64,000 nucleotides of DNA from the IMG/VR virus record IMGVR_UViG_3300034069_000660, positions 1 through 64,000 of that record; one strand, 5' to 3'. The first letter of the stretch is position 1. Each line of letters starts with the position of its first letter. The position numbers and the translations under genes were made by a program. Positions 14,266-55,983 of the stretch are shown one piece after another. Source of the stretch: a virus. Below the pieces are notes generated by a model, which ran no database searches, was not told the DNA's origin, and worked only from the letters and a program-made list of their open reading frames with translations.

Positions 14266-14630
14266 AGGTCGAACTCCTGCGTCAGCGTGATCGAACAGTC
14301 CTGTATCAGGTAGCCGCTAGGTTTGCCCGACCACCCCGCCGCTGTCCATTTCAGCGGTCGAGTCTGGTCCTGCCCATACGGTGCCCATTCGATGATGCCG
14401 ACCCCCGCCAGCCCCCGGAAGAACAGGCGCAGTTTCTCCGCATCAGCGTCGCTGATCCGTGTCCATGCCAAGCGCCAAACCTGCTGCACGGAGTTCAGGC
14501 CCTTCCGTGCGCGCTGGGAATAGCGGTCGCCGAAGTTGATACGCGACACCGCATAATCCTCGGTCATGTCGGTACCGAACGACAGGTCGAGGGTTTCGGG
14601 GTCCCCGTTGATCAAGGGTATGGTCGCCAT
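14262..14630 (-). CDS. Minor tail protein, lambda gpM-like
   Basis: 122 aa, located between the tape measure and gpL. Motif VWRLAWTRISDADAEKLRLFF is typical of Phage_min_tail. Confidence 0.8.
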   Translation of the reverse strand: MATIPLINGDPETLDLSFGTDMTEDYAVSRINFGDRYSQRARKGLNSVQQVWRLAWTRISDADAEKLRLFFRGLAGVGIIEWAPYGQDQTRPLKWTAAGWSGKPSGYLIQDCSITLTQEFDL

Positions 14631-17600
14631 CAGCGGTTCATAACCGATTGGCGAGTGTTGGTCAGCTGGCCTCCGGGGCGTTTCGCCGCTGCGATCTCTT
14701 CGCGGACGATCGAGGTCAGCGCCGCCTTGACGTCACGTCCGATCTGGCGGCCGTCCGACCCGGACGTTTCCGATCCGGTCTGAACGATAACGTCTCCGAA
14801 TGACATGGTGTAGCTATCGCCAACACCTCCGCCCGTGATCCGCGCCGTGGCAGCATTGTCGTTATTCGCACGTCGCAACCCTGCCGTGACGGCACCGCTG
14901 TTCATGGCTTCAAGCATGGCTTCGTTGCCCGGCCGCGCCACTGCAGCGGCATTCACCACGAATTCCCCGTCGGACAGGTTGGCCTTGATCGCGTCGTCAC
15001 GCGGACCGCCGGGACCCCTTACCTTGCCACCGTCGGCAAAGTTGAGGCTGATCGCTTGGATATTGGACACGATCGACGCGGCCTGTGCCGCTACGGTTGC
15101 GACCGCCGCGATGTTCGCCGGGAAGGGCAGCGACAACGCATTGGCGATGCCCTGCTGTATCTTGATCACGCTGTCGGCAATGGCGAACGCCTTCGACGTG
15201 ATGAACAGCCCCTTGTAGACCGCCGATTGCTTGCCGACGCTGTCTTCTGCGATCGACAGCAGACTTTCACTGGTCGATTGCGCTGCACCGATCGCGATAT
15301 CCCGACGGGCATAGTCGATGTTCCGCAGGGTGTCGGCGTGCTTGCGCTCGATCGCCTCCCGAACCGCCGCCGCTTCGGCATACAGGATCGTTCCCTGATC
15401 AAGGAACGTGGACAGCTGCCCCAGTTCATCGGCACGTTCGCGGTCCGCCTGTTCACGCGCGCCCTGATCAGCGAAGTTTCGACCTAGATTGTCATTGCCG
15501 GGCAGGCCGGCTTTGAACTGGCTGGCGGTGGTGCCAAGGCCTTGCACCGACCGATTGAACTGGTCCTGCGATATCGCGCCACGGGCCAACAGCGCCTGTA
15601 GCGCCGCGATCTGGTCGTGGTACTCCTGCACGGGCTGACGCACCGCTTCAAGGATGCCGACCTGCCGTGTCAGCGCGTCACCCTGACGGATCGATGACTC
15701 GATCATCTGCGCCTCGACAGGGGTCAGTTCACGTCCAAGCCGGGTCGTCTCTTCCAGCTTGGCATTCATGATGGCCCTGTCCTGCCCCGTGACGCCCTGT
15801 ATAGCCCGCAAACGCTGTAGCGGCTGAACATAGGCCTGATCGAAGCGATTGGCCGTCTCCCGGGCGTCTGCATCGGTCAGGGCCGACGTGATGCGGCGCG
15901 TTTCGTCTGGCCCGGCTTCGCGATCGAACCTGCGCTTGAACTCCGCCAGCTGCCGCGCGATGCGCGCGTCCAAGGTGTCGGCACGTCCGTCGATGCCGCG
16001 CGTGGCGGCTTGATCTTCGACCCCAGCGACGAAATCGCGTTCCTGTTCGGCCTTACGCGCCGCCTTCTCTGCCGCCGTTTCCTCCGTGCGCGCCGCGCGC
16101 ACCTCCGTTGCCGTTTCATCGGTCCGGAACCGGCCCTTGCGCGGATCGACGTAGCGACCACCGACCTTGACTCGATAATCCAGATGCGCGCCGGTGCTGA
16201 TACCGGTGTTGCCGACCCCGCCGATCTGCTGGCCCTGCCCGACCCGCTGCCCGCGCTGCACAAGCACCGACGACAGGTGGCCGTATTCGGTGATGGTGCC
16301 GCCGCCGTGGTCGACGATGATGGCGTTACCCAGACCACCCAGCTTGCCCGCGTGCACGATGACGCCGCCAGCCGCCGCCTTGACCGCAGTGCCAGCCGGC
16401 GCGGCGATATCGATGCCACGGTGAAACGTCGAAGCCCCGGCGGTGGGGGCCCGGCGGGGCCCGAACCCGGAAGTGACCCGTCCCTCTGTCGGGTTGATGA
16501 AGGTGGTCAGGGGACCAGCCTTGGCGTCCGACTTTTCGAGCCGTTCGGCGGCCTGCTGCGCCTCGATCGCGGCGTCGCGGCGCTGGCGCAGCTGTGTCAG
16601 CTGGCGCGTGGTCGCGGAATCAACGACCTTGCCGGCCTGAATCTGGATACGGATGGTCCGTTCAAGCGCGCTGATCTGGCGGTCATATTCGAGCGTGACG
16701 CGACCGACGGCGGTCGATTGCTTGTCCGAAAGTTCGAGCGCCAGATCTAGCCGGGTCTGCTGAACGCGCTTTTCCGCCTCCACGATCCCGGCTTGTTCGG
16801 CCTTGGCGCGCTTCGCCAGTTCCTCGACGCGACCTGCATATTGCGCTGCGACCAGTGACGCCGCACCGCCGGGACCGCCGCCGGTTGCACCCGGGCGGGC
16901 GTTCTCCGCCAGCACCTTCGCCTGTTCGAGTTCGGCAAGGGTGACCTTCCGGATGCTGATCTCGCGTTCGAGGTTCGTCTTCGCCGCGATGTTCGCCGCT
17001 TCCGCCGAAGTGCGGGTTGCGTCGATCGATTCCTTGGTCGCCTTGGTGCCTTCGCGGATCGCCGCCGCGACACCCTCCGAACTGCGCGCGTAGCGGACCT
17101 TGGCACGGTCCGCGACCTCCGTCTCTTTCGCATCCTCTTTCAGCTTCTTCACGGCTTCGTCGAGCGCACTGGTGGCCTGATAGGCCTTGTATGCGAACAT
17201 GCCGAGAACGGTCGTGCCGGCAAGGATCAGGGAGCCCCAAGGCCCGGCGATGAAAGTGGCGACCTTGCCGGCGGTGCCAGCGGTGCCAAGCGCCAGCGAC
17301 AGCGCCGACGCCGTCTGACCGCCCTGCTGCGCCAGCACGACAAGGGGGTTGATGCCAAGGGACAGCGTTTGCAGCGTGTCCTGCACCTGAAAACCCAGCT
17401 GGGTATAGCCGGCGCGCTGCTGACCTATCGACACCGTCGATTTGTCCACCCCATCGGCGACCAGCTTCTGCACCTGTGCGAGCCGGACGTCGTCGATGAT
17501 GCCAGCCTCTTTCAGCCGGTGCGCTTCCGCCAGCAGACTGTTTAGCTTCGCCATTTCGGCGGCCTCTTCGTCCACGGCCTGCAGCACGCGCCGAAGCGAC

Positions 17601-17965
17601 CCCGCCATTTTGTCGTTCCCGGCGGCAGCTGCCGCCGTTCCCTTGGCGACGCCGGCCGTGGCGTTCCCGGCCTTGCCGGCGGCCAACGTCATCGAGTCCA
17701 GCGACTTGATCAGGGAAGCGTTCGAGGTGGCGACGGCGGTGGAAGTGCGCGCCGTCTCCGTCATCGTCTTTTCGAGTGATTCGAACCGGGTGACCAGCGA
17801 ACCGATCGATTTGTCGAATTGGCCCTGATCGAACGCGGTGTTGATCGCCTTCTTCGTGGAGGCAGCGGCGTTATCGACGCCTTTCAGGTCCTGTTTGACC
17901 TTCTGCGCCCCGGTAGTGACGCCGGACGGGTCCAGCTTGCCGACGATCAGATATTCAGTCGACAC
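14630..17965 (-). CDS. Tape measure protein (1111 aa) with embedded M23 (LytM) peptidase domain
   Basis: Long Ala/Gln-rich helical protein downstream of the G/GT pair. FHRGIDIAAP..DHGGG..GNTGISTGAHLDY at about aa 490-610 (nt ~16136-16498). GTG start overlaps the end of the T frame. Confidence 0.9.
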   Translation of the reverse strand: MSTEYLIVGKLDPSGVTTGAQKVKQDLKGVDNAAASTKKAINTAFDQGQFDKSIGSLVTRFESLEKTMTETARTSTAVATSNASLIKSLDSMTLAAGKAGNATAGVAKGTAAAAAGNDKMAGSLRRVLQAVDEEAAEMAKLNSLLAEAHRLKEAGIIDDVRLAQVQKLVADGVDKSTVSIGQQRAGYTQLGFQVQDTLQTLSLGINPLVVLAQQGGQTASALSLALGTAGTAGKVATFIAGPWGSLILAGTTVLGMFAYKAYQATSALDEAVKKLKEDAKETEVADRAKVRYARSSEGVAAAIREGTKATKESIDATRTSAEAANIAAKTNLEREISIRKVTLAELEQAKVLAENARPGATGGGPGGAASLVAAQYAGRVEELAKRAKAEQAGIVEAEKRVQQTRLDLALELSDKQSTAVGRVTLEYDRQISALERTIRIQIQAGKVVDSATTRQLTQLRQRRDAAIEAQQAAERLEKSDAKAGPLTTFINPTEGRVTSGFGPRRAPTAGASTFHRGIDIAAPAGTAVKAAAGGVIVHAGKLGGLGNAIIVDHGGGTITEYGHLSSVLVQRGQRVGQGQQIGGVGNTGISTGAHLDYRVKVGGRYVDPRKGRFRTDETATEVRAARTEETAAEKAARKAEQERDFVAGVEDQAATRGIDGRADTLDARIARQLAEFKRRFDREAGPDETRRITSALTDADARETANRFDQAYVQPLQRLRAIQGVTGQDRAIMNAKLEETTRLGRELTPVEAQMIESSIRQGDALTRQVGILEAVRQPVQEYHDQIAALQALLARGAISQDQFNRSVQGLGTTASQFKAGLPGNDNLGRNFADQGAREQADRERADELGQLSTFLDQGTILYAEAAAVREAIERKHADTLRNIDYARRDIAIGAAQSTSESLLSIAEDSVGKQSAVYKGLFITSKAFAIADSVIKIQQGIANALSLPFPANIAAVATVAAQAASIVSNIQAISLNFADGGKVRGPGGPRDDAIKANLSDGEFVVNAAAVARPGNEAMLEAMNSGAVTAGLRRANNDNAATARITGGGVGDSYTMSFGDVIVQTGSETSGSDGRQIGRDVKAALTSIVREEIAAAKRPGGQLTNTRQSVMNR

Positions 17966-24194: not shown

Positions 24195-25448
24195 TTACGC
24201 CTCCGAATCCGCCGGGGCGGGATAGGCGGCGGCGTAGAGTTCGGGGGCCTCGTTACGCGCCTTCGACATGGCGTCCGACAGCGACGAATTGTCGCGCTTG
24301 CGGATTTCGGCCACCTTGCCCTCGAAGTCGCCGCGCGCCTTGGTGATATCACCCGACGGCCCGGTGCTGTCACCGCCATCGCCGGAGGTCGAGCCAAGGC
24401 TCTTGAAGATGCCCGCCGATCCCTTGTTCATCGCGTCGAGCGACTTGATCAGGTCCTTGCCCGCGTCGGTGTCCTCGCCGACCTGCACCGCCGATTTCAG
24501 GATCGTCACCGCCGTCGCCTTGGCGACGTTCGGATAGGCGGCGGCGCGCTTCTCGATCGTGTCGCCCTGCATCCCGGCGATCACCTTGTCCTGCGCGTCG
24601 AGGCGCTTCGCCATCATCAGCGCGGCGGTGCCGTCCGACTTCCGGATTTCGGTGCCGTCACCGCAGGTATAGACGATCGGGTCGCCCTTCTCGATCGCAT
24701 CGATCGTGGCCTGCTGATCGGCCGCCGACTTGGCGAGGAAGGCCTTCTGCCCGGCGGCGTCGAGCCCGTCATAGTGCTTGCGGATCGCGGGGGCCATCTT
24801 GAGGACCGCGACCTCCGCCTGCAATGCCTCGACCCGGGCGTCATCGGGGGCGGCCGGCGTCACGATCGCCAGAATGCCTTCCTTCGGCAGCGCATCCGTC
24901 TCGCCCAGATCGGTCGCGGCCTTCTGGATGATCGTGACGTGCGAGGCCGGCGACGTGGCCGGGTCGAACTTGGCGACAGCAGACAGCAGCTGCGCCTTGG
25001 TGGTGATGTTCATGGTCGTTTGCTCCTGCTGGGTAAGCCACTTCGAGATTGCGGTGCTGACCGCCGCCTCTAGGTCGGTGTCGGCGGTGCCGGTCGCGAC
25101 GCGCGCCGCTTCGGCGGCCATGCTCGCGATCTGTTGCATCGCTGCGGTAAAGTCGGCGACGGCAACAGTGCCGGTCCCGCCGTCCGCGATTTCGTCGGTC
25201 AGGGCGGTGCGGAACGCATCACGCACCGACCATTGATGTTCGAATGCCCGCCAGAACGTGTCGCTGATCTGTTCGCTGACCAACTGTCCATGCAAGGCCT
25301 CCTGAAAGGTCTTTTTCGCGATGGCTGGCGGTACCGGACCAGTCGGGGCGCGCTTCACGATCGCGACGGTCGCATGTTCCTGACATGGCCTGTCCACGAC
25401 GGCGATCTTGTCCAGCCGGATTGCGGTCAGCTTGCGTCGCACGGCCAT
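24195..25448 (-). CDS. Putative scaffolding protein (417 aa, Ala-rich helical)
   Basis: Located between the protease and the decoration/capsid genes. Start overlaps the protease stop (TGATG). Confidence 0.45.
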   Translation of the reverse strand: MAVRRKLTAIRLDKIAVVDRPCQEHATVAIVKRAPTGPVPPAIAKKTFQEALHGQLVSEQISDTFWRAFEHQWSVRDAFRTALTDEIADGGTGTVAVADFTAAMQQIASMAAEAARVATGTADTDLEAAVSTAISKWLTQQEQTTMNITTKAQLLSAVAKFDPATSPASHVTIIQKAATDLGETDALPKEGILAIVTPAAPDDARVEALQAEVAVLKMAPAIRKHYDGLDAAGQKAFLAKSAADQQATIDAIEKGDPIVYTCGDGTEIRKSDGTAALMMAKRLDAQDKVIAGMQGDTIEKRAAAYPNVAKATAVTILKSAVQVGEDTDAGKDLIKSLDAMNKGSAGIFKSLGSTSGDGGDSTGPSGDITKARGDFEGKVAEIRKRDNSSLSDAMSKARNEAPELYAAAYPAPADSEA

Positions 25449-25918
25449 CAGGAATCCTCCTCTTCGAAGGCGATCCGGCCGCCGGTCATTGAGAACCCGG
25501 TATAGGTGCCGTCCTGAAACTTTTTCAGCACGTCCGGCTCCGGTCGATAACCGACTAGAAGGCCCAGCTTCGGCGCATCGATGCCTAGTGCCTTGGCGAT
25601 ATCTTCGGTCAGTGGAAACATGAACGGATAATTTCCGGTATCCGGTCCGGCGTGCATTTCATCCCCGACAAGATGCGTTCCGGGTTCCGTTGCCTCGACA
25701 ACAGCTTTTAGGATGGCGTCATCGGTGATCGCCTCCGGAACCTTCTTTCCTTTATGGACGCCATCGACGTCGATATTCAGATCGTAATAATCTTCATACA
25801 CCCCGGCGTCATTCTTGACCTTCGAGACGATGGCAAAGCCGAAGACGATGCCGTGTGCAGCATCGACCTGCACGTCTTCCTGAACCTTGACGATCTGGGG
25901 GGCGGGCTTCGACGACAC
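25448..25918 (-). CDS. Prohead protease, XkdF-like (Peptidase_S78_2-type)
   Basis: GTG start (V63 of ORF 25448-26104) preceded by AGGAG with a 6-nt spacer. Motifs: HGIVFGFAIVS..DLNIDVDG..DEMH..GTYTGFSMTG. Confidence 0.65.
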   Translation of the reverse strand: MSSKPAPQIVKVQEDVQVDAAHGIVFGFAIVSKVKNDAGVYEDYYDLNIDVDGVHKGKKVPEAITDDAILKAVVEATEPGTHLVGDEMHAGPDTGNYPFMFPLTEDIAKALGIDAPKLGLLVGYRPEPDVLKKFQDGTYTGFSMTGGRIAFEEEDS

Positions 25919-26039
25919 AGCAAACTCCTGCGCCCGGGGCGGGCTTCCGTCGCTGTGGTGGGGGCAGGCCAGCGCCCTGAAAGGCGTCAATCCCTGTCGC
26001 GTCTCATATAACGACTCGGGTGGCCTGCATAGTGGGGCG

Positions 26040-27008
26040 TCAGCGTTGCTTGATCCGTGTTGCGATGGCGCACCGACACTGAATTGTCTCCGCCGCCGGG
26101 GCATCAGGGTCGCCGGGATAGCGCAGCACGCCGTTGACGGTGACCCATGTCTCGCCCCATGCCCGCTTCTCTTCGTTCAGCAGAAGATGCGTTTGCCGTT
26201 CGCGGCCATCGGTGCGAGTGACCCACTTTCGTTCGAGCCTATCCGCATCGATCGTACCGTCAGCGATGGCTTGACGATACATTTCTTCGTTGCCCTGATG
26301 CACAGCGCGCAGCGCCTCTGTGCGGCCGATCACTTCGGCCCGGTGCTTGACATATCGGGCGGTGTACCGCTCGACCAGCCAATCGATCTTCTGGGGGGAA
26401 AGCGCCTTGCCATCCCGCGCCGCGCGCTTGACCTGTGTGTCGCCGCGCCCGTCGCGCAGCGCCCGGCCTACGGCATCAGCGGCGGCATCAGCGTCGACAT
26501 GCACCCGGGTCAGCGCGGACCGATAGTTCGCAACGGCGGTCCACTGTTTCGTCGTCAGCCCGATACTGTCGCGGAAATTGCGCGCCTGCGCGATCGGGTT
26601 GATCGCGGCTTCAACGCCACTGACCAGCGCCAGCGACGTTGCGCGTCGCTGTTCGGCCGTGAACTCGCGGACCAGCGTCAGGCTGTTGCGCTGCATCGCC
26701 GCCACGGCACCTAAATTGACCTGATTGAAGACCAGCCGGCCGACGTTGGCACTGGTCAGGAATTCAGCCGTGGACTGCCCGGAGGTGACGAACGCGACGT
26801 TGCTGGCGGCTCCCAGCGCGTCGGCGGCGTGTTGGAGGCGATCGAGCGCGTCGGCGAGACGGCCTTGTTGGATCAGGTCTGCCAGTTCGTCGAGATCGAT
26901 CTCGTTTTTCAGGGCTTCAACAGCCGTCCTGAATATGGTCGCGATCCGCCGCTCCTGCAGGTCTAGCAGATCATTCAGACGCTGCGCCGGATCATAGGTA
27001 TCTGCCAT
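26040..27008 (-). CDS. Head morphogenesis protein, Mu F / SPP1 gp7-like
   Basis: Start is M23 of ORF 26040-27074. C-terminal ...TIQCRCAI motif is typical of Phage_Mu_F. Confidence 0.75.
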   Translation of the reverse strand: MADTYDPAQRLNDLLDLQERRIATIFRTAVEALKNEIDLDELADLIQQGRLADALDRLQHAADALGAASNVAFVTSGQSTAEFLTSANVGRLVFNQVNLGAVAAMQRNSLTLVREFTAEQRRATSLALVSGVEAAINPIAQARNFRDSIGLTTKQWTAVANYRSALTRVHVDADAAADAVGRALRDGRGDTQVKRAARDGKALSPQKIDWLVERYTARYVKHRAEVIGRTEALRAVHQGNEEMYRQAIADGTIDADRLERKWVTRTDGRERQTHLLLNEEKRAWGETWVTVNGVLRYPGDPDAPAAETIQCRCAIATRIKQR

Positions 27009-27420: not shown

Positions 27421-27968
27421 CAGTCCCGATCCTCCGCATAATAACCGTCGCGCCCATAATCGGACCAGCGCCCTTCGACCGGCCGGCACCCTGACGACGC
27501 ACCGCTGACGAATGCGCCAGCCATCGCCCCGTCATCGTCGGATGCGGTGGTCGCATCGCAGACCAACCCTGCGGCTTTCAGCATAAGCCACAAAGGCCCG
27601 GGGAGGGGGGCGTTGTCGGTTACGGCAGTGAAGAACTCGACCTGCGCCGAACCGGCCTTGGCGATCTTGACGTTGCTGTTGCCGCTGGCGTCGCCCATCA
27701 GTCGCGGCTTCGCGACCAGATCGGCCGCCAGCATGGCTGTTACCTCCTGCACAATCTCCGACTGTTCATCGGCAGTGGGGTCCGGTCGATCCGCGCACCA
27801 CGTCAGGGTCAGCAGCTTCCGGGTCGCCGATACGATACCCCGGCCCTTGGCCGCCTCCTGTAGCACTGCCCACCGGGCCGCCCGGGACACGTCGCCCGCA
27901 AGAAAGCGGTCCGCGCGATCGATCGTCGTCAGCGCGTCGAACTCATGATCACCGATCTTGACCTTCAC
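27420..27968 (-). CDS. Hypothetical protein (182 aa), possible head-tail adaptor with DnaT-like N-terminal domain
   Basis: ATGA-coupled to the portal gene. The N-terminus resembles a DnaT_2-type adaptor domain, but the match is weak. Confidence 0.45.
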   Translation of the reverse strand: MKVKIGDHEFDALTTIDRADRFLAGDVSRAARWAVLQEAAKGRGIVSATRKLLTLTWCADRPDPTADEQSEIVQEVTAMLAADLVAKPRLMGDASGNSNVKIAKAGSAQVEFFTAVTDNAPLPGPLWLMLKAAGLVCDATTASDDDGAMAGAFVSGASSGCRPVEGRWSDYGRDGYYAEDRD

Positions 27969-29533
27969 CGCCGCATCCTCCGCTTCGCCATGTTGCGTCG
28001 CGACCGCAGGACCTTGGCGATGCGACGATCTTCGGGATTATTAATAACAGGATCATCGGGATCGACCTGATCGGTCCGACCCGGGGTTAGGGACAGGTCC
28101 ATTTCGTCGACCCGCTCCGGCGGACGCGTCAGGCCCAGCAGGTCATAGACTTCGCCCACGGCGGGATCGTCGGGCATCAGCGGTGCCCCGGCCGTGGCGA
28201 GGTCCTTCAACGCGGTCAGGACCTGTTCGATATCGCGGTCGCTGATCTCATTGACGCCCATCTGCGGGCGGAGTTGTTCGGGCCAGCCGTTCAGATCGGC
28301 TATCGGGGTCAGCACGTCGCGATCTACGACCTCGACAAGGTCGAGCAATGTTGAAGTCACGGTCAGGAAGAACGTGCCGACCTTCGACCGCGCCAGTGCG
28401 AGCGATCCGGCACCGTCCGACCCTAGCAACAGATGCTCGACACCCAGCACCCGTGCCAGTTCTTCGTTCATTCGCTTCACGGCGTTTGCCATGGAGTCGA
28501 AGCTGGTCGATTCTCCGTTCAGTAGTTCGAGCGCCCATTTCGGGGTCGCGCTTGGCGTCTGGCCCTTTTCGGTGCTGTTGCTGGTGAACGGGTCTGACGG
28601 CAGCATCAGGCCGGTCTTCTTGTTGCGAACGTGCTTTTCGATGAAATCCCGCAAGGGGCGCAACATCATCGATCGACGGGCCTCCGCCTTTTTGCGTTCC
28701 GGACTGTCCGGTGCGCCCGCATCTTCAACCTCTTTCTTCATTTCCCCAAGCGGTGCCCGGGCAACGGGGATGCCACGCAAGTCGGTGGTGAAACCCGTTT
28801 CTTCCAAATCGAGGAACAGCTTCAACCGATCCGCTGTTTCGGCAAGGTGTCGGAATAACCCCATGCCCTCTGGATTGTCGGTCAGCAGATCGTCGACGGC
28901 GTAGACGATCTTTCCCCGGGGCAACTCCACCTCCGCAAGCCCGGTGACGCGCTGCACCACGGCCTCAATCGTTCCGGAGCGGTCGCGCTTCCACCGCACG
29001 ATGGAACGCTGTGGTCGATGCTCGATATCCAGCAGTCCGATCGAACCATCGTCCATCCGCTTCGCGGTCCATTCCATGACGGAGAAGCCTTGCAGCCGAA
29101 ACATCGCGATTTTCCGGATCACGCTTGACCAGCTGGTCGTCATTCCGAACAGCATGTCATAGGCAGCATCGGCATAGCCCTGCGCCACAGGGGCTTCGTT
29201 ACCGTTCAGGCCTTCTGGCGGGTTCACAGTCCAAACCGCGTTGGCGATCAGGTTCAGAAAGAGACGCACGCCGGCAGCAACGATCGTGACGTCACGAACC
29301 ATGCGGTCATATTCATCGAACCGGGCCTGCCCGATCAGATTCAATTTTCGCTCTGGCAGGCTGTATGAATAGCCCTGCAGATCGGCGGCGGAATTTAGAT
29401 TGCTGCCTAGCGTCTGCGTCGATCCGACGGCTTTCTGGATCACGTCATCCGCGTCTGCGGCGTCGGTTACGTCACGCTGACCGTCGCCCCGGAACCAGCC
29501 CCCTACGCGGTCGAAGATGCTTTCGTCGGCCAA
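27965..29533 (-). CDS. Portal protein (522 aa; TTG start)
   Basis: Size, position upstream of the MuF-like gene, and acidic/basic C-terminal tail. The start codon is TTG, with a GGGAG SD 7 nt upstream. Confidence 0.8.
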   Translation of the reverse strand: MADESIFDRVGGWFRGDGQRDVTDAADADDVIQKAVGSTQTLGSNLNSAADLQGYSYSLPERKLNLIGQARFDEYDRMVRDVTIVAAGVRLFLNLIANAVWTVNPPEGLNGNEAPVAQGYADAAYDMLFGMTTSWSSVIRKIAMFRLQGFSVMEWTAKRMDDGSIGLLDIEHRPQRSIVRWKRDRSGTIEAVVQRVTGLAEVELPRGKIVYAVDDLLTDNPEGMGLFRHLAETADRLKLFLDLEETGFTTDLRGIPVARAPLGEMKKEVEDAGAPDSPERKKAEARRSMMLRPLRDFIEKHVRNKKTGLMLPSDPFTSNSTEKGQTPSATPKWALELLNGESTSFDSMANAVKRMNEELARVLGVEHLLLGSDGAGSLALARSKVGTFFLTVTSTLLDLVEVVDRDVLTPIADLNGWPEQLRPQMGVNEISDRDIEQVLTALKDLATAGAPLMPDDPAVGEVYDLLGLTRPPERVDEMDLSLTPGRTDQVDPDDPVINNPEDRRIAKVLRSRRNMAKRRMRR

Positions 29534-29535
29534 GG

Positions 29536-29582
29536 CCCGGCTCCCTGATAGATTGCGGGCTGTCTTATATCAGGGAGCCGGG
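29536..29582 (-). promoter_or_regulatory. Perfect 15-bp hairpin that contains the portal Shine-Dalgarno sequence
   Basis: CCCGGCTCCCTGATA (29536-29550) pairs with TATCAGGGAGCCGGG (29568-29582), with a 17-nt loop. On the coding strand GGGAG lies in the 3' arm, 7 nt before TTG. Confidence 0.7.
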
Positions 29583-29597
29583 ACGGTCGAGTGATGG
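29573..29597. repeat. Direct repeat copy 1 flanking the 919-aa ORF
   Basis: GGGAGCC[GGGAC]GGTCGAGTGATGG. Matches 32384-32403 at 19 of 20 positions apart from the 5-nt insertion. Confidence 0.7.
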
Positions 29598-29612
29598 CCT
29601 GTGCCGTTTGTC

Positions 29613-32372
29613 TTAGACGGCGGCCATGGCTTCATACCATGCCTTCGCCAGCATGGACGGACGTTCCGGCGGGAATGTGGCCGTCTGACCGACGTGATGG
29701 GTAAGCCCCCATGCCGTCGGACGATAGTCGGTGTAGAAGGTCTGGTTGCCGCCGACGATCCGCTGATGTTCGGTGATCATGTATTTCAGCAGATCGTAGC
29801 CCTCTTGAGACGCAAGCAGGTTATGCCAGAGTTGCCCGTTTCCGATATCCTCAAACCCACCTTCATATTCAAAGAACGCCCATCCCTTCGACACGGCGTA
29901 ATCACGGTTTTGTGCCGCCCGCCCGTAAACGATGGGAACATCATTCTTGATCCGTGTTACCAAGGTGGCAAGATCATTAGCCGACAAGTCAATGCCCTTG
30001 TATCCGCCGATATAAGGGGCCGTCGAAATCGACTGAATATATGGAGCAATTCCCGGCTCCGCTTCGCATACCTGCGGAGCCAGCGCGACCCCATCATTGT
30101 GAAGATCGACATTGCAAACCAGCAGGTCCGCCACGCCTTCGGCAATGAATTCCTCCATCACCCACGTCATGACCTCCTTATGTCGGAAGGACCAATACCT
30201 TAGCACCTTGTCATGCTGGCTTCCGCCGGTGTCGACGTATTTGCCGGCGGCTACCGCCCGCGCCGCAAGACCATCGGAGCCGCCCAGTTCGTCGGACCCT
30301 GCAACCGCTCGCCACGCCGGCTGTCCCGAGTTCCAAATCTCGTTCGCCAGCGTCCACATGACAAACATCATGTGCAGCTTCGCCCACTTCGCCGTTCGCC
30401 GCGCCTCCGTCCGCACCCATGCTTCCGTCGCCTGCAACGGAATATGGAAACGACCGGTGTTCCCCGTGGCCGTCAAAAGGCCCAGCAAATCCGGGGTGCT
30501 GTGGCGGATTGTCTGCCCGATATCTCCCGCCTGCGTAATACGCGGATTAGGATCAAATGCGGTGTCGACCGTCGATTGCATATCCATCAAACGCGATCCG
30601 AACTGAAATTTAGCATATCTCGAATTGATCGCGATATGATCTACGTCCCAATAGCCGGGGCTTCGACGGCTACCGTCATCGTTGATCTCGTAAATACGGC
30701 AGTTTGTGTATGCGGTGGCACCAAGCGGCTGGATTTGCATCAGGAACACATCAAGCGACTGGCCGGGAACCTGCCATTCACCTCGATAATACCGTACCTG
30801 ATCCCAGTTGAACGTAAAGTCGACAAACGACTCACCATTTGCAGAACTGACCCCACTAACGTCCGTTATCGAAGCGCCGCCGCCGTTGTTTCTGGTGTCG
30901 AGGCCCGTCATATCGCTGTCAATCTGCAACCGCATACGCTGGCTTGGTGCCGCCATACCGCCAATGTAAGCCACCGGCCGACCACCATTTGCGAACGCAG
31001 ATGCAACCGGAGTGCCTGCCGTGTTGATAGGGGGAATGGTATCATTGCCGCCGTCAATTCTACCTCGCCAGCTGCCGACGTTCTTGTTGGCCGTCGGCGC
31101 GTTCAGATAGTAATAGTTGGACGCATTGGGATTTGTCGCGAATGACGGAGCCGCTGCCCACACCACTCCACTTTGGGTGGCAGTCTCTCCGCTGGTGGCT
31201 TGCGTGATCCGGATGCGCGTCGGGAAACCACGCTTGGCCGCCGATAGTGCCGACTTGGACCGCAGCCGCACGCGGCCCGCTTGCGGATACTCGACCACCT
31301 CGGCATTGACCTTGTCGATCAGCGTACCGGCACCATCACCGGTCAACACCTCGATTGTCAGGAAGTCATTGATCGGCATGTAATAGTCGATGACGGCATC
31401 GACGAACCCAAGGCTGTCATAGGTCACCGATGCGAAAGAAACCGGTTTGTAGAGAACCGCATAGGCCCCGCCGGTTACATTAGTAAATTCCGCATCCGAT
31501 CGGAACCTGATGCTGGTCCGATCTGCATTATAGGCGTCAGGGTTTGCCGCGATGATTGTTGCCTTGCTGATAAGACTCTTGCGGACCCCATCCTGCAAAA
31601 CCTCGAAGTCGCCATTCGGCAGAAGCGAAGCACGGATTTTCCCATTCGCGGGATCGCTAACAGGATCGACATGAATGTCTTCGCCGATTTTGGCGTATTG
31701 ATTTCCGGGTACACCGCCAAGGAATAGATATTCATCATTTGCGATGGTTAGAAATAGCGGCGCGCCCGTTTCGCCGATGCAGAAATATGCGAAGAAACCG
31801 ACATTCTGCGGCTGAAATTCCCAGAACTGCGCATTGGAATCGGTGTCAGCAACATCCGTGTCCGACGTCGTGAGATTGTCAAAATTGGGTGGTGTCGTCG
31901 CTGGCGCGGGGAAGGCGACGACCTTTGCATCGACTGGCGGCGGGGGCGGCGGCGGGGGCGGGGGTGCCGGCGGCGACACGTCGATGATCGAGGCGGTCAG
32001 GACGAACCTCTTCTCGATTGCGAAACCGGATGGTCCTTCGACGCGCACGGTCAGCGTGACGGTCTGGTTCAGCGGGATCGCTGCCGTCGTCGCGATCAGG
32101 CCCTCCGGGCTGACCTGAATAGTGGCGGGACCGGACACCTTGTAGAAGGTCGCATCGGGAATGGTCGATCGCAGCTGCGATACGGTTCCGGTGACACCCG
32201 CCACGATCTCCGTGTTCAGCAGGGTCAGCACCGCCGCACCGCCAGTTTCGAACAATTCGCGGAACATACGGTCCACCGCTGCCCAGCGGCGCGGACCGGC
32301 GAAGAGGGGGGTCTTTACGGGTTCATAACCTTCGGCCACGGCGGTCACTCCTATCGGGTTCCCGGCCTGCAT
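29613..32372 (-). CDS. Large accessory protein (919 aa): Ig-like N-terminus, Pro10 linker, beta-rich middle, C-terminal glycoside-hydrolase-like region (candidate polysaccharide depolymerase)
   Basis: ORF track. GC visibly lower than flanking genes. PPAPPPPPPPPPP at aa 134-146. LANEIWN (E678) and FFEYEGG (E835/E837) are reminiscent of clan GH-A catalytic motifs; that is inference only. Confidence 0.7.
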   Translation of the reverse strand: MQAGNPIGVTAVAEGYEPVKTPLFAGPRRWAAVDRMFRELFETGGAAVLTLLNTEIVAGVTGTVSQLRSTIPDATFYKVSGPATIQVSPEGLIATTAAIPLNQTVTLTVRVEGPSGFAIEKRFVLTASIIDVSPPAPPPPPPPPPPVDAKVVAFPAPATTPPNFDNLTTSDTDVADTDSNAQFWEFQPQNVGFFAYFCIGETGAPLFLTIANDEYLFLGGVPGNQYAKIGEDIHVDPVSDPANGKIRASLLPNGDFEVLQDGVRKSLISKATIIAANPDAYNADRTSIRFRSDAEFTNVTGGAYAVLYKPVSFASVTYDSLGFVDAVIDYYMPINDFLTIEVLTGDGAGTLIDKVNAEVVEYPQAGRVRLRSKSALSAAKRGFPTRIRITQATSGETATQSGVVWAAAPSFATNPNASNYYYLNAPTANKNVGSWRGRIDGGNDTIPPINTAGTPVASAFANGGRPVAYIGGMAAPSQRMRLQIDSDMTGLDTRNNGGGASITDVSGVSSANGESFVDFTFNWDQVRYYRGEWQVPGQSLDVFLMQIQPLGATAYTNCRIYEINDDGSRRSPGYWDVDHIAINSRYAKFQFGSRLMDMQSTVDTAFDPNPRITQAGDIGQTIRHSTPDLLGLLTATGNTGRFHIPLQATEAWVRTEARRTAKWAKLHMMFVMWTLANEIWNSGQPAWRAVAGSDELGGSDGLAARAVAAGKYVDTGGSQHDKVLRYWSFRHKEVMTWVMEEFIAEGVADLLVCNVDLHNDGVALAPQVCEAEPGIAPYIQSISTAPYIGGYKGIDLSANDLATLVTRIKNDVPIVYGRAAQNRDYAVSKGWAFFEYEGGFEDIGNGQLWHNLLASQEGYDLLKYMITEHQRIVGGNQTFYTDYRPTAWGLTHHVGQTATFPPERPSMLAKAWYEAMAAV

Positions 32373-32383
32373 ATCGCAGTGCC

Positions 32384-32403
32384 GGGAGCCGGTCGAGTGA
32401 CGG
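32384..32403. repeat. Direct repeat copy 2, immediately 3' of the tRNA
   Basis: GGGAGCCGGTCGAGTGACGG. See 29573-29597. Confidence 0.7.
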
Positions 32404-32408
32404 GGCTA

Positions 32409-32485
32409 TGGTTGCGGGGACCGGATTTGAACCGGCGACCTTCGGTTTATGAGACTGACGCGCTACCAGACTGCGCTACCCCGCG
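32409..32485 (-). tRNA. tRNA-Met (anticodon CAT), 77 nt with encoded CCA; initiator-like acceptor stem but non-canonical anticodon stem
   Basis: Sequence CGCGGGGTAGCGCAGTCTGGTAGCGCGTCAGTCTCATAAACCGAAGGTCGCCGGTTCAAATCCGGTCCCCGCAACCA folds as a cloverleaf. It closely resembles E. coli tRNA-fMet as recalled from memory. Confidence 0.9.
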
Positions 32486-32557
32486 CTGCCGGAATGACAA
32501 ACGGCCCGCCCCGGGTCAAGGGACAGGCCGTCAGACTTCGTGCTTTCGCGGATCAAT

Positions 32558-32725
32558 TCAGGGGCATTTGACGTCCGGGCTGGTCACCGTGCCATCGCGG
32601 CACTCGCCGTTCGTGTTCGGCGACGCCGTCGGAGCGGGGGAGGGCGTGGCGATGACGCGGGTGTCGTCGCAGCCGGACAGTGAGGCCGCAACGGCAAGGG
32701 CGGCGATGACAGAGAACTGACGCAT
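32558..32725 (-). CDS. Small lipoprotein (55 aa)
   Basis: Not in the ORF track (under 60 aa). Translation: MRQFSVIAALAVAASLSG|CDDTRV...VKCP. AAGGAG lies 8 nt upstream of the ATG. Lipobox LSGC. Confidence 0.7.
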   Translation of the reverse strand: MRQFSVIAALAVAASLSGCDDTRVIATPSPAPTASPNTNGECRDGTVTSPDVKCP

Positions 32726-32784
32726 GGGATCGACTCCTTTGGTGGAGCCGCGACGCTATGGCAGGTCGCCGGCTTCGTCCAGCG

Positions 32785-33012
32785 TCAGGACATGCCCTGT
32801 TGATTGTACCGAAACGTGAGCCGGGCGATTGCCCCGATCAGTAGACCGGCGAGGGGTGCCTTCGACCACATCGATCCTGTGGTGCCATCGCGATAGACGA
32901 TTGCAATGGCGACCGACGACACGGAGCCGGCACGGGCTTCGGTCAACACGGCTTCAAGCGCCTCGACCACGGAAGCGTCCGGAACGGGCGATAGGGGAAC
33001 AATCTCTGCCAT
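32785..33012 (-). CDS. Hypothetical protein (75 aa; start uncertain)
   Basis: M70 of ORF 32785-33219. The upstream part of that ORF looks non-coding (R/P/S-rich). No clear SD. Confidence 0.35.
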   Translation of the reverse strand: MAEIVPLSPVPDASVVEALEAVLTEARAGSVSSVAIAIVYRDGTTGSMWSKAPLAGLLIGAIARLTFRYNQQGMS

Positions 33013-33344
33013 GCGGCTGGATACGCGAACGGCCCCGCCGGTTGCAATCCCGGCGGGGCCGTGAGGTGACGCCAGCCAGTAGGGTCCCGGCGTGGCTGGC
33101 GTCTGGATCGGGCGGCCGAACCGTGACCTTGTCCACCTGTCCGGGTACTTCGGTGAACTGACCCTTACCATCAAACTTGCCGTGTGCGGTTTCTGGCTTT
33201 CGCCTCCCGCTCGGGTCACGGCCCCCTGTGATAGGCGAACCCATCATCTGTGCCGGCTGTCTCCTGACCGGCCTCCGCCGGCCAATCCCGGGGATGGACC
33301 GCCATTGCGCCGACGATCGGCGATTCGCAAGCCCGAAACGCAAA

Positions 33345-33366
33345 CGGCCTGCCGGTTAAGGCAGGC
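33345..33366 (-). terminator. Probable intrinsic terminator after the 89-aa exported-protein gene
   Basis: GGCCTGCC / GGCAGGCC 8-bp stem with a 6-nt loop. On the minus strand it is followed by GTTTGCGTTTCGGG. Confidence 0.55.
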
Positions 33367-33447
33367 CGCAGGGGCTGGGGCTATCGAGGCACCCCGCCTA
33401 CTTCCGGCGCGTGCGGGCGGGGGAACCCGGGCGCGCTGGCTATTCGA

Positions 33448-33775: not shown

Positions 33776-35434
33776 TCAATATGCACCCCATGGGTCTTCG
33801 ACGTCCTCGCCGGCCGCCTGCATTGCCGCAAGACGCTCTTCGTCGCTGCCCGGCTCGACGATCTCTGGACCCGCGTTGGTGCCGCCCCGATCGGTCGGAA
33901 CCAGCTTGCCGAAGGCGCGGCTGCTGGCATCGACCTGATCCTTATATGATCCGGCGGGGAAGTTCCGCAATTCCTCCCTGTATGCACTGTTCCAATCGCC
34001 CTTCACCATGAAGACGCGGCCGGCTCCCACCATCGCGGCGAAAGGCTCCGCACGCGTTTCCTTGTCGCCGCTTTCTGGCGTAATTTCGAAGTCGAGCCCC
34101 GCCAGCAGTTCCGCCCAGTTCCACTTCACAACCTTGCCGGTCGCTCCGGGGTCCTGCGGCAGGCTGTGGAGCGTCCTTGGACCATAGTCGCGGGTGTCCT
34201 GACGGGTGACGACCTCGACCATCTTGTTCAGTTCGGTCGGGTTGGTGCGGCGGCGATCGACGTGCAGGATATAGTAATCCCCGCCGACGCGCTTCATCAG
34301 GGTCCGGACGGTAAACGGGCTGTTCTTCCGCTTGGACCCGGCGATATCCCACCCGGCGACTATCTTGCCGCCGCCCGGCGCGACCGGGACCGTCTCGATC
34401 AGATCGACCTTGAACATGCCGCCTTCGCGCGGTGCCGGGCTCTGCTGATACTGGCCTGCCCAGACATAGTCGCCGGCTTTCTTCTGGCGGGCGATGGCGG
34501 TCGGCGGCATCCGGACCGGGTCCATCAACTCGCCTTCATACGATCGTGGATCGCACCAGTTCTTTTTGCCGCCGCCCGGGACGTCGACGCGCAGCGGGGT
34601 TTCACACTTCCGCTCGACCTCGAACTCCATCGGGATCATCAGATGAACGAACCCGAAGTCACGCGCCAGCAACGCCCCTGTGAGATCGTCCTGATGGATA
34701 CGCTGCATCACGATCACCATCGCCGACGTTTCTGCGTCGTTCGACCGGTTCAGGCCACCTTCGATGAACTTGCGGACGGTGCCGGTGCGCTCTGTCTCAC
34801 TCTCGGCACCGTCGACGCTGTGCGGATCGTCGATGATCACGACGTCGCCGCGCTTGCCGGTGATCGCCGCGAAGGCGACGCCCTGACGGAACCCGAAATC
34901 GTGGTTTTCGAACGACGTCTCGCCGGCACGCTTCAACTTGCCGGACCGGTCGAACACCTCCGGCCATAGTTCGCGGTACCAGTCCGACAGGATCAGATCG
35001 CGGGTCTTCCGGGTGTCGCGGGTGACGTTGGCAAGATCGAACGATGACGATACCCAGCGGCTTGCGGCATTGCCGAACGGTCCCCAGACCCATGCCTGCC
35101 ACATCACCGACACGATCATCGACTTCGACGAACCCGGGGGGACGTTGATGATCAGCCACGGCGTCATCTGGCCCCGGGTGATCGCTTCCAGATGGTCGCA
35201 CATGGCTTGGAGGTGCCATGACCATTTCAGGGGGTTGCGCGGTTCGAGGACGTGCCACGCTTCCTTCACGAAGCCGGCGAGGGTGCGACACCGCCCCCGG
35301 ATTGCGTCGGCGTTCGCCCGGGTCTGTTCGAGGTCTGACTCGGCGAGTTCGCGCGCCAGCTGCGCCCGCAGGCTCCGAAGCGCGCCGCGATCCAGCGTCG
35401 CGACGTCGGGCAGATCAACCGTCAGCGCCGCCAT
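33776..35434 (-). CDS. terL: Terminase large subunit
   Basis: Walker A-like NVPPGSSKS and VVIIDDPHS. C-terminal nuclease-region motifs (GWDIAGS..., KDQVDAS). Confidence 0.9.
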   Translation of the reverse strand: MAALTVDLPDVATLDRGALRSLRAQLARELAESDLEQTRANADAIRGRCRTLAGFVKEAWHVLEPRNPLKWSWHLQAMCDHLEAITRGQMTPWLIINVPPGSSKSMIVSVMWQAWVWGPFGNAASRWVSSSFDLANVTRDTRKTRDLILSDWYRELWPEVFDRSGKLKRAGETSFENHDFGFRQGVAFAAITGKRGDVVIIDDPHSVDGAESETERTGTVRKFIEGGLNRSNDAETSAMVIVMQRIHQDDLTGALLARDFGFVHLMIPMEFEVERKCETPLRVDVPGGGKKNWCDPRSYEGELMDPVRMPPTAIARQKKAGDYVWAGQYQQSPAPREGGMFKVDLIETVPVAPGGGKIVAGWDIAGSKRKNSPFTVRTLMKRVGGDYYILHVDRRRTNPTELNKMVEVVTRQDTRDYGPRTLHSLPQDPGATGKVVKWNWAELLAGLDFEITPESGDKETRAEPFAAMVGAGRVFMVKGDWNSAYREELRNFPAGSYKDQVDASSRAFGKLVPTDRGGTNAGPEIVEPGSDEERLAAMQAAGEDVEDPWGAY

Positions 35435-36003: not shown

Positions 36004-37284
36004 TCAGTCGAACAGGGTCAGGCCCTTGGCGGGCGCGGCGCGGGCGGCTTTGCGGCGCAGGTGCTGTTCCATCACGCGGCCTCCTTCGCCGCGCAGATGC
36101 GCCAGCTTGCGCGTGATATCGGCGACATGTTCCGGGACCAGATCGATCAGTTCCGCGTTCATCCGCTCCGCCAGTGCCGCGATCCCGGTGGTGCCTGATC
36201 CGGCAAACGGGTCCAGCAGCAGGCCGCCCGGCGGACAAATCAGGCGGATCAGCCACCGCATCACGTCCACCGGCTTTACAGTTGGGTGTTCGGACCCAAG
36301 TCGATCGAGCGGGCCAGCCTTGGCACTGTAGAAGAACCGGGAGGCGTTGCCCGACGATCCACCGATGCCGTGTTCAGCTGCGCCACCCTCAAATCCGCCG
36401 AATATCTCGCCGAACTTGTTGCTGCGCCGGCTGGCCGGGGTGCCGCCCCCGGACTGTTCCGGGAACAGCGCCACGACCTCGTCGCTGCCGTCATGGATCA
36501 GATTGGCGGGGAAGCGGCCGGCTGGCGTGGTGTCGATAAGCGCGCGGGGCGACGCGACGCGGGGCACGGCTGGATCGTGACGGCAGGGTATCGCCCCCGC
36601 CCCCTCGCGCAGCACTTCGTCATGAGGCACCCGACAGGCATCGATATTCAGCCCGCCGACGCCGTGGGTCAGCACGTTCGAGGCGACGGTCGGTTTATTA
36701 AACGGCTTTCGCGCCAGACATATCGGCTCCCAAGCCGGTTTCAGGGCAGTGCCCCACCCGTTCCATTCCTGCGCGGCGGCGGTGGCAGGGACAGTGATGG
36801 TCCCCGGATGCCCGGCATAGTCCCCAAAGGCGTTGGTATTCAGGGAAGGGGTTTGACGCTGCGCCACGGCGGCATCGTAACCAACCACTTCACGAACGGC
36901 CCCAGCTTCCCGATCGATTGCCTTCGACACGTCCAACGACTTCGGGAATCCAGACCCATAGGTCCACGCCAGCTGATCCCTGATCTCGAACCCGGCGTCT
37001 TCAATCGCGACCGCCATCCGGTGATAGGTCCTCGTACCGCTGAACGCGACAAGGTGCGCGCCGGGCTTCATCTGGTCGAAGATCGCGCGCCACGTCTCCG
37101 GGTTGAAGGCGACACCGCTGCGATCCCAGCCGCGACCCATGAATCCGAGTTCATACGGGGGGTCTGTCACCACCGCGTCGAACAGCGGTCCGGTCCGTGC
37201 GCGCAGCACCGCGACGCAATCGCCTTCGGTGACGTTGATTCTGACGGGACTGGGGGGTAGCTGGGTCATGCGGTCTGTGTCCAT
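36004..37284 (-). CDS. Orphan DNA methyltransferase (N6-A/N4-C, beta class; alternative start 37269)
   Basis: DPPY motif (VVTDPPYELG) precedes the SAM motif (LLDPFAGSGTTGIAA). No adjacent endonuclease. Confidence 0.85.
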   Translation of the reverse strand: MDTDRMTQLPPSPVRINVTEGDCVAVLRARTGPLFDAVVTDPPYELGFMGRGWDRSGVAFNPETWRAIFDQMKPGAHLVAFSGTRTYHRMAVAIEDAGFEIRDQLAWTYGSGFPKSLDVSKAIDREAGAVREVVGYDAAVAQRQTPSLNTNAFGDYAGHPGTITVPATAAAQEWNGWGTALKPAWEPICLARKPFNKPTVASNVLTHGVGGLNIDACRVPHDEVLREGAGAIPCRHDPAVPRVASPRALIDTTPAGRFPANLIHDGSDEVVALFPEQSGGGTPASRRSNKFGEIFGGFEGGAAEHGIGGSSGNASRFFYSAKAGPLDRLGSEHPTVKPVDVMRWLIRLICPPGGLLLDPFAGSGTTGIAALAERMNAELIDLVPEHVADITRKLAHLRGEGGRVMEQHLRRKAARAAPAKGLTLFD

Positions 37285-55727: not shown

Positions 55728-55969
55728 CGTGTTGGGTCTATCTGGGGCAGGTCAATCGTGGTGATCCGTTTACCGTCGGGTTCTATAAGCCCGACGGTGA
55801 ATGGGAGCCGGAGAGCGATCACGCGACGGCGGACGCGGCGGCGAAGCGGGTGCACTACCTGAACGGTGGGATCGACCTGACGGCACCGCTGAACGCCTAC
55901 GGCGAGGGGATCGGCGAGGCGATCCAAGGTCAACACGAACGCGGGCTGCGCGGCATCCCCAACCCCTGA
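55724..55969 (+). CDS. Hypothetical protein (81 aa, GTG start overlapping the upstream stop)
   Basis: ORF track. Confidence 0.45.
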   Translation: MTCWVYLGQVNRGDPFTVGFYKPDGEWEPESDHATADAAAKRVHYLNGGIDLTAPLNAYGEGIGEAIQGQHERGLRGIPNP

Positions 55970-55983
55970 TCGGAGAATCACAG

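Follow-up and report, generated by a model that had tools for sequence, protein, structure and literature searches.

A predicted glycosidase gene between two copies of a portal-upstream element in a siphovirus of the R6L/ZS04 type

Findings

The 64,000-nucleotide stretch of viral DNA analyzed here, positions 1 to 64,000 of the IMG/VR record IMGVR_UViG_3300034069_000660 (hereafter the window), is essentially the whole ~64-kb genome of a siphovirus of the Erythrobacter phage R6L/ZS04 type, whose host is probably a member of the Sphingomonadales. On its minus strand, to which all window features described below belong unless stated otherwise, the genes are arranged in the order terS, terL, tRNA-Met, an open reading frame (ORF) for a large glycosidase-like protein, portal, adaptor, head-morphogenesis protein, major capsid protein, tape-measure and J-like tail protein. 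The glycosidase-like ORF (29613-32372; 919 amino acids (aa) from its ATG, probably 908 aa from the GTG at 32339) lies between direct repeats; as judged from sequence models, these are two copies of the control element that belongs to the portal gene, with one now serving the enzyme gene and the other the portal. The explanation that we favor, with moderate confidence, is that an enzyme cassette was recombined into the genome at this control element, now duplicated, between tRNA-Met and portal, and that its product is a surface-glycan depolymerase of glycoside hydrolase (GH) clan GH-A.

The repeat reads GGGAGCCGGTCGAGTGACGG at 32384-32403 and GGGAGCCGGGACGGTCGAGTGATGG at 29573-29597, one copy on each side of the enzyme ORF. 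We aligned locally the two flanks of the gene, taken from the end of the tRNA to the gene start and from the gene stop to the portal start (69 and 79 nt), and obtained a score of 31, compared with 14.4 +/- 2.6 under the null; since none of 5000 dinucleotide shuffles reached this score, the repeat cannot be attributed to chance, and random segments of the window reach it at a rate of 2e-4. A preliminary description of this DNA had placed the ORF, the tRNA and the repeats correctly and had recognized a genuine direct repeat. Its estimate of ~20 bp holds insofar as both copies are present, but it falls short of their length: 38 nt are matched in the closest relative, and the repeat as a whole is a second copy of an element of ~50-65 nt that is found upstream of the portal gene in every related phage examined.

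That closest relative found, an IMG/VR contig (L007/L008) with a portal 77-79% identical to that of the window, has the order terL, an 84-aa ORF, tRNA-Met, 64 nt and portal. In BLASTN comparisons, a single 38-nt segment of this contig (L007 7939-7976) matches both 32401-32364 and 29594-29557 of the window, and the breakpoints delimit a segment of 2,769 nt (29595-32363), consisting of the ribosome-binding site (RBS), the ORF and an 18-nt tail, that is absent from L007. Given that one and the same L007 segment matches both flanks, the insert breaks exactly at the repeat, in agreement with the earlier suggestion of an extra cassette with an empty site. The accompanying idea that deletion between the repeats would restore a tRNA-hairpin-portal arrangement is not borne out, the hairpin being specific to the window phage and absent from the empty site.

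The layout of the element is recognizable in the ~70 nt before the portal start of twelve distinct relatives, where GACCG is followed by ~12 nt, CTGCGATATGA, ~20 nt, AGGAGGCCGGGCG and a TTG or GTG start. A sequence-only model (R2), built from 12 portal leaders with the copy next to the enzyme gene (copy A) left out, has exactly two hits in the window, at 29531-29593 (copy B, before the portal; 44.4 bits) and at 32349-32401 (copy A; 22.2 bits, E 9e-6), and a single hit, at the portal, in each relative. It is because this held-out model hits nothing in the window other than the portal leader and 32349-32401 that we regard the repeats as two copies of a conserved promoter-like and RBS-containing element, single-copy in relatives, and not as anonymous recombination scars. 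The opposite possibility, that of a common regulatory motif, is borne out to the extent that the element precedes the portal in all relatives, but it does not extend to the rest of the genome, where the window has only these two copies.

Copy A, upstream of the enzyme gene, contains a -35-like TCGACCG (32396-32390), a 12-nt spacer and a -10-like GCGATATG (32377-32370). Copy B, which was aligned with 11 relatives, contains the same -35-like TCGACCG (29590-29584), a -10-like CTGATATA (29573-29566), the RBS AGGGAG (29546-29541) and the TTG start of the portal gene (29533-29531). Compared with the single-copy spacer of L007, copy A matches at 31 of 38 positions, with a BLASTN identity of 80%, and its second half, beyond CAGGCC, has no significant similarity to that spacer by itself (P 0.12). 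The RpoD consensus of the alphaproteobacterium Caulobacter consists of TTGaCgS and GCtANAWC (PMC8144410). Blocks 1 and 2 of the element fit this consensus with the right spacing and block 3 is a ribosome-binding site, so that conservation and consensus match together suggest an element that may work as a promoter followed by an RBS.

Two broader interpretations of the repeat were considered and rejected. A genome-wide late promoter is incompatible with the sequence models, which find only the two copies in the window; the loose pattern CGAC-N14-18-GATAT does occur 12 times in the window versus 2.75 expected, and most of these occurrences are inside genes, so they were not relied on. A conserved RNA structure, as a general explanation, was dismissed after RNAalifold detected neither covariation nor a structure common to the 10 portal leaders to which it was applied; Rfam matched only the tRNA.

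Strong hairpins at the element are nonetheless present in the window phage, and only there, since they are not conserved in relatives. Copy B contains a perfect 15-bp hairpin (29536-29582, arms 29568-29582 and 29536-29550, detected with find_repeats; RNAfold -39.2 kcal/mol, z -4.8), the 3' arm of which includes the portal RBS while the 5' arm is located upstream of the -10-like box, and copy A folds into a 7-bp outer stem with an inner hairpin (z -3.35). Thus, in this phage alone, the RBS of each copy pairs with a segment upstream of the -10-like box. We hypothesize that both stems may block the translation of transcripts that read through from terL and the tRNA, a form of translational gating.

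The cargo slot, with tRNA-Met (CAT) as its left anchor (32409-32485; ARAGORN, Rfam tRNA 63 bits) and the Mu-type portal gene as its right anchor (27965-29533; Pfam Portal_Mu, PHROG 113, TTG start), is variable among relatives. It holds 64 nt in L007, ~150 nt in L018, ~350 nt in L025, a terminator hairpin with an 87-aa ORF in ZS04 and R6L, and ~3 kb in L009, L010 and L016, including a 438-aa TROVE/vWA (Ro60-like) protein and extra tRNAs. In L019, whose portal is 58% identical to that of the window, the slot is filled by an ORF of 1458 aa, the product of which is a very distant homologue of the enzyme (hhalign probability 98%, E 2e-13, 558 columns), with LSNEVWN, YEAG and TAPYFGG in register and with the enzyme's N-terminal RW[AS]AVD motif present three times. 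The enzyme modules of the window and L019 are ~17% identical, versus 58% for the portals, and CCGGCTCCC is common to copies A and B and is not found in L007; this sharing, along with module divergence in excess of portal divergence, suggests that the gene was gained, or the element converted, after the split from L007. The cargo of L019 and ZS04 was also examined for a position between two element copies: some resemblance was seen by eye and was not recovered by the held-out model, and the idea was dropped. The flanking duplication is therefore established for the window phage only.

Other cargo and a neighboring insert deserve mention in their own right. The proteins that combine TROVE and vWA domains are encoded at L009 3355-4671, L010 3319-4671 and L016 2953-4269, and in L009 the gene adjoins extra tRNA genes (Thr, Gly). 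Phage-borne Ro60 systems are usually accompanied by Y-like RNAs. Relative to L007, the window has a second insert of ~800 nt (32532-33330) just upstream of tRNA-Met. On either side this insert has a copy (33331-33375 and 32488-32531) of a 45-nt terminator-like hairpin that L007 contains only once, and the interval thus seems to grow by duplication of local punctuation elements. This insert holds a 74-aa ORF (32787-33011) with a weak hit to PHROG 796 and a 55-aa lipoprotein-like ORF (32557-32724; MRQFSVIAALAVAASLSGC...), the product of which could be a candidate for superinfection exclusion. A further 316 nt of the insert (33015-33330), which contain no convincing ORF, fold at -154.6 kcal/mol (z -3.55, with none of 100 shuffles as good) and have no Rfam match, and may represent a structured RNA of no known family.

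The protein encoded in the slot belongs to a rare sequence family. Homology over residues ~300-919 was detected in 15 representatives in an exhaustive HMMER scan of 1.84 billion cluster representatives, and word-index protein searches found four proteins, the C-terminal part and then a profile giving three more than the query; a full-length word-index search returned the query only, probably because the proline run swamped the candidate list. No GH family was matched in Pfam by any of 14 members at E values up to 10, the only hits being to unrelated accessory domains; PHROG and NCBIfam gave no match to the protein, sequence searches of PDB with the single sequence and with a profile returned only noise, and tblastn of the enzyme against 50,697 phage records found none, the N-terminal part likewise having no match in phage records. 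The N-termini differ among family members, some of them resembling fibre anchors, and an F5/8-type-C sugar-binding domain is present in one member.

In an alignment of 14 sequences with 20-64% identity, R594, D597, E650, R654, N677, E678, N681, E741, Y787, Y836, E837 and E841 are invariant. The two motifs that had been singled out as resembling the acid/base and nucleophile motifs of clan GH-A are LANEIWN, with N677 and E678 at 30339-30344, and FFEYEGG, with E835 and E837, the latter at 29862-29864; the proposal stands for E678 and E837 and does not for E835, which is not conserved. AlphaFold2, run on residues 301-919 with the family alignment (model mcf2f03dac8d6), produced a model with a predicted local distance difference test (pLDDT) score of 83.7 and a predicted template modeling (pTM) score of 0.84, in which two predicted β-sandwiches (30645-31472; ~residues 312-414 and 468-563, from DSSP strands), part of a conserved 610-aa module, are followed by a predicted eight-stranded β/α barrel (residues ~555-919; 29616-30644), a clan GH-A type assignment that draws on the invariant columns, the model and Foldseek. 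The pair N677-E678 is located 2-3 residues after model strand 371-375, the fourth barrel strand when counted back from strand 8, E837 directly follows model strand 532-535, the seventh, and Y787 comes after the sixth strand. The best Foldseek matches in PDB are GH2 β-glucuronidases, a GH51 arabinofuranosidase and GH26 mannanases (E 2e-6 to 1e-4, probability 1.00), all of which belong to clan GH-A, and in the viral library BFVD the matches include phage 'cellulase'/GH5 proteins and a tail protein (E 1e-6 to 1e-4). The C-terminal domain is accordingly predicted to be a (β/α)8 glycosidase of the clan GH-A type, a TIM-barrel prediction that had been made from the motifs and that the model and the structural matches uphold.

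As in clan GH-A, the predicted (β/α)8 barrel has Asn-Glu after strand 4 and Glu after strand 7, ~160 residues apart, and the accessory β-sandwiches N-terminal to the barrel recall GH2. Unlike members of the clan, the enzyme has no sequence match to any Pfam GH family or PDB chain, even with the family profile. Since no existing GH family model matched even at E 10, the family would be new within clan GH-A and not a member of GH2, GH5, GH26 or GH51.

The start of the gene has to be moved from that of the longest ORF. The ATG at 32372 falls within the -10-like GCGATATG box and lacks a ribosome-binding site, as the preliminary description had observed in stating that the gene lacks a Shine-Dalgarno sequence, a statement that is true of this ATG only. 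Eleven codons downstream, the GTG at 32339 (32339-32337) is preceded by AGGAG (32352-32348) at 8-nt spacing, the whole start region spanning 32337-32352 and giving a 908-aa product; the Prodigal call P0001 on an identical Logan contig starts there as well (908 aa), and with this start the motif F-x-G-P-x-R-W-A-A-V-D is as far from the initiation codon as in the L019 homologue. By these sequence signals GTG 32339 is likely the true start. The N-terminal ~290 residues counted from it (31473-32339) contain a Pro10 linker (residues ~136-146) along with the RWAAVD motif, a stretch that may be Ig-like and a β-rich region; no signal peptide is apparent when the protein sequence is read. We found no intrinsic terminator downstream of the enzyme gene, the hairpin there having no U-tract.

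In base composition the ORF departs from its surroundings, with GC 0.578 and a GC content at third codon positions (GC3) of 0.66, compared with GC 0.64-0.65 and GC3 0.73-0.90 in the terL, head and tail genes; the GC of the portal gene is itself somewhat low (0.605). The low GC claimed at the outset is therefore real as an average, but it is patchy: codons 1-180 are backbone-like (0.62-0.69), and codons 181-330, 480-600 and 750-900 are low (0.49-0.55). The homologues are also low for their context (GC3 0.54 versus 0.82 for L019, GC 0.60 versus 0.66 for Sphingomonas metalli), as is the C-terminal half of the J-like tail protein of the window, and a low GC may reflect the nature of such host-interaction modules instead of their age.

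Outside the window, members of the family have been found in several settings. In a Sphingomonas metalli prophage, P0004 is preceded by tail genes and by genes for a GH19 lysin, a holin and a Calx-beta protein; P0005 is at the end of a prophage-like block; and P0008 (L030 4481-10228, 1915 aa), the member with the F5/8-type-C domain, is encoded in a T5-like contig, where terS, terL and three small ORFs directly precede it, so that the enzyme is found beside terminase genes in a second type of phage. For P0002, P0004 and P0005 alike, the next gene encodes a PEP-CTERM (exosortase-sorted) protein. Taken together, these neighborhoods portray a family that is phage-borne, tied to bacteria that make exopolysaccharide (EPS) and, more than once, situated beside terminase genes, to judge from gene content.

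The PEP-CTERM genes themselves are at L003 2228-2851, L005 12473-12997 and L027 12747-13475, and two of their products end in a near-identical PEP[TS]TWALMLAGF...RRRR. Enzyme and PEP-CTERM protein may be conserved companions among the cargo of sphingomonad prophages; the window itself encodes no such partner.

Origin and function of the cassette

Under the explanation that we favor, the present order of tRNA, element, enzyme, element and portal would have arisen when a cassette recombined at the element and thereby duplicated it. The exchange could have used the phage's Erf-type annealing protein, an exonuclease also being encoded, and the same repeats would permit clean loss of the cassette. 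Erf-type annealing proteins can recombine short, diverged homologies. The copy of the portal promoter in front of the gene would probably drive its late expression, and the model would make the product a retaining glycosidase or polysaccharide depolymerase acting on host capsule, exopolysaccharide or a glycolipid sugar, with N677-E678 after strand 4 as the putative acid/base and E837 after strand 7 as the putative nucleophile. Such an enzyme might be carried on the virion, attached via its lineage-specific N-terminal part, or be released at lysis. A far more ambitious version, in which the junction is a dedicated cassette-exchange site, the portal leader serves as a portable stretch of homology and an expression adaptor, the stems gate translation to promoter-initiated transcripts and the cargo represents a new GH-A family for a sphingomonad surface glycan, appears to us improbable.

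A number of observations count against the favored explanation or some part of it. With respect to the element, a generic E. coli-type promoter scan does not call it, and in copy B the spacer is shorter and the -10-like box weaker. The low-GC stretch of the gene neither begins at the repeat nor matches the repeat boundaries. The only other assembly with the same arrangement, the Logan contig L006, is 100% identical over 22.7 kb and so is not independent. On the side of the protein, the Foldseek TM-scores are modest (0.25-0.45), partly owing to the multi-domain query, and the catalytic equivalence of E678 (acid/base) and E837 (nucleophile) is putative, being based on their positions after predicted strands 4 and 7. 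In the full-length AlphaFold2 model the first 300 residues, whose beginning had been described as Ig-like, have pLDDT < 50, and they match nothing in Pfam or PHROG, which leaves that description without support and makes virion attachment through this part a guess. Finally, the distant homologue in the same slot of L019 implies that occupancy of the slot may be old. The gene could be either an old resident that was lost by relatives or one of several alleles exchanged at the slot, and either case weakens the notion of a recent capture, which also finds no support in the divergence of the two element copies or in a closest homologue of only 64-68% protein identity.

The most serious competitor takes this last point to its conclusion: enzyme gene and duplicated element would be ancestral, L007 and L018 would be empty through deletion between the copies, other cargo would have come later, and no capture would have occurred in the lineage of the window phage. 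We consider this possible and less likely than capture. It accounts well for L019, the most distant relative sampled (portal 58%), where the slot is occupied by a large homologous gene whose product bears the shared motif at its extreme N-terminus, and deletion between 38-nt direct repeats would yield exactly the single-copy junction of L007; the divergence of the two copies is likewise what an old duplication would produce. Set against this, copies A and B share CCGGCTCCC, which L007 lacks, pointing to duplication or gene conversion after the split, and the disparity between modules (~17%) and portals (58%) makes simple co-inheritance improbable unless evolution was very fast or alleles were replaced. 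The scenario also calls for several independent losses, the GC3 of the enzyme gene is below that of the backbone, and the held-out model finds no second element upstream of the L019 gene. The repeats could, in principle, also be the attachment (att) sites of a site-specific recombinase, the gene being an integron-like or att-like mobile cassette, as might be imagined from the several types of cargo in one slot beside a tRNA gene. No recombinase gene is adjacent, however, and the repeat is the portal's upstream element, present once in cargo-free phages and not reproducibly flanking other cargo; moreover, the copies differ by indels and substitutions and have no identical core of the kind typical of att sites, so that we deem this origin very unlikely.

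The remaining alternatives concern what the protein does. It might be a lysogenic-conversion cargo that remodels or trims the lysogen's own exopolysaccharide and is of no aid to the virion, given that P0004, P0005 and P0002 either close a prophage late region or belong to a contig of bacterial appearance, and that each is followed by a gene for a PEP-CTERM protein, a hallmark of EPS producers. The gene in the window, in contrast, is inside the packaging and head operon, on the same strand and behind a copy of the portal control element, an arrangement that speaks for late lytic expression; it has neither a PEP-CTERM partner nor a signal peptide, none of the genes examined was seen to encode an integrase, and among cultured relatives the nearest ones are phage isolates. 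We accordingly view such a role as rather improbable for the window gene. Distinctly improbable, too, is a structural or receptor-binding role without catalysis, for instance as a side fibre or decoration protein, in which a glycosidase-like fold is kept for sugar binding, even though the multi-domain β-sandwich build, the variable and in some cases fibre-anchor-like N-termini and the location among structural genes would all suit it. None of the 14 members, down to 20% identity, departs from the Asn-Glu pair, the second Glu or the R, D, Y and E residues typical of GH-A active sites, and because such conservation is expected for catalysis, catalysis is favored over binding alone.

Relation to known systems and significance

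Most characterized phage depolymerases are β-helix tailspikes. The closer comparison for the window protein is with phage-encoded depolymerases with GH5-type barrels, among them a protein of Erwinia phage phiEaP8 that is annotated as 'cellulase/glycoside hydrolase' and proteins of Pseudomonas phages POR1 and Skulduggery that are annotated as 'GH5 domain-containing', which resemble it in being large multi-domain phage proteins with a GH-A barrel, as reflected in the BFVD structural match, and from which it differs in having no detectable sequence similarity to them and in being encoded in the packaging and head module instead of the tail-fibre region. As a genetic unit, the cassette invites comparison with the morons of lambdoid and HK97-type phages, reportedly described by Hendrix and colleagues as autonomous extra genes that have their own promoter or terminator and are inserted between conserved genes. 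Like a moron, the enzyme gene is absent from close relatives, sits between conserved genes, deviates in base composition and has its own promoter-like element; unlike one, it has a promoter-like element that is a duplicate of the portal control region, no terminator after it and a distant homologue in the slot of L019. A search of the literature on R6L, on phage GH5/TIM-barrel depolymerases and on morons at terL-portal junctions turned up nothing useful.

If active, the enzyme would represent a new and very rare family with the GH-A fold in phages and prophages of sphingomonads. Sphingomonads carry glycosphingolipids in place of lipopolysaccharide and make commercially used sphingan gums. A specific depolymerase could thus be useful and, again provided that it is active, would point to the phage receptor. 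The locus is also a clean example of the gain or loss of a host-range-type gene by a phage, with breakpoints at a duplicated element, an empty site, alternative cargos and a distant allele. What is new here is the rare sequence family; the enzyme fold, phage depolymerases, morons and variable slots beside tRNA genes are already known, and a moron-like cargo in a variable slot by a phage tRNA, well documented as it is, opens no new kind of biology and will not surprise the specialist.

Other features of the genome and its relatives

Phages R6L and ZS04 and the IMG/VR UViG 3300048858_000017 share with the window the genome type, the gene order, a terL and portal 70-79% identical and a tRNA-Met between them, and differ from it in having no enzyme gene, the slot of the UViG being a 64-nt spacer. 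Nucleotide identity to Erythrobacter phages ZS04 and vB_EliS_R6L is ~71% in terL and portal, and the portal is 58-79% identical to the portals of the relatives as a whole. The large terminase subunit gene, terL (33776-35434; Pfam Terminase_6C, PHROG 38, E 5e-70), forms the upstream edge of the variable interval. A tRNA-Met is located between terL and portal in L001, L002, L007, L009, L010, L016, L018, L019 and L025, and L014 and L021 are without any tRNA. The genome collection was scanned twice, with the portal protein and with a portal profile, and gave no match; a metagenome scan contributed only two further loci.

The plus strand encodes an exonuclease VIII-like protein at 55801-57654 and, at 58079-59365, an Erf-like single-strand annealing protein. 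Two DNA methyltransferase genes are present in or near the packaging and head module, one (36004-37284) just upstream of terS and the other (25448-26104) flanked by the head-morphogenesis gene and a 417-aa ORF; ZS04 has both of them as well. The tape-measure protein (14630-17965) contains, at residues ~444-640, an internal M23-type metallo-endopeptidase or endolysin-like domain, which probably has a cell-wall-digesting function in ejection. In the J-like central tail fibre protein (5584-12969, 2461 aa), the C-terminal half has a GC of 0.53-0.60, compared with 0.62-0.66 in the N-terminal 1000 codons, and near residue 1395 there is a weak GPxFWSAVD motif that resembles the N-terminal GPRRWAAVD of the enzyme (BLASTP E 0.1).

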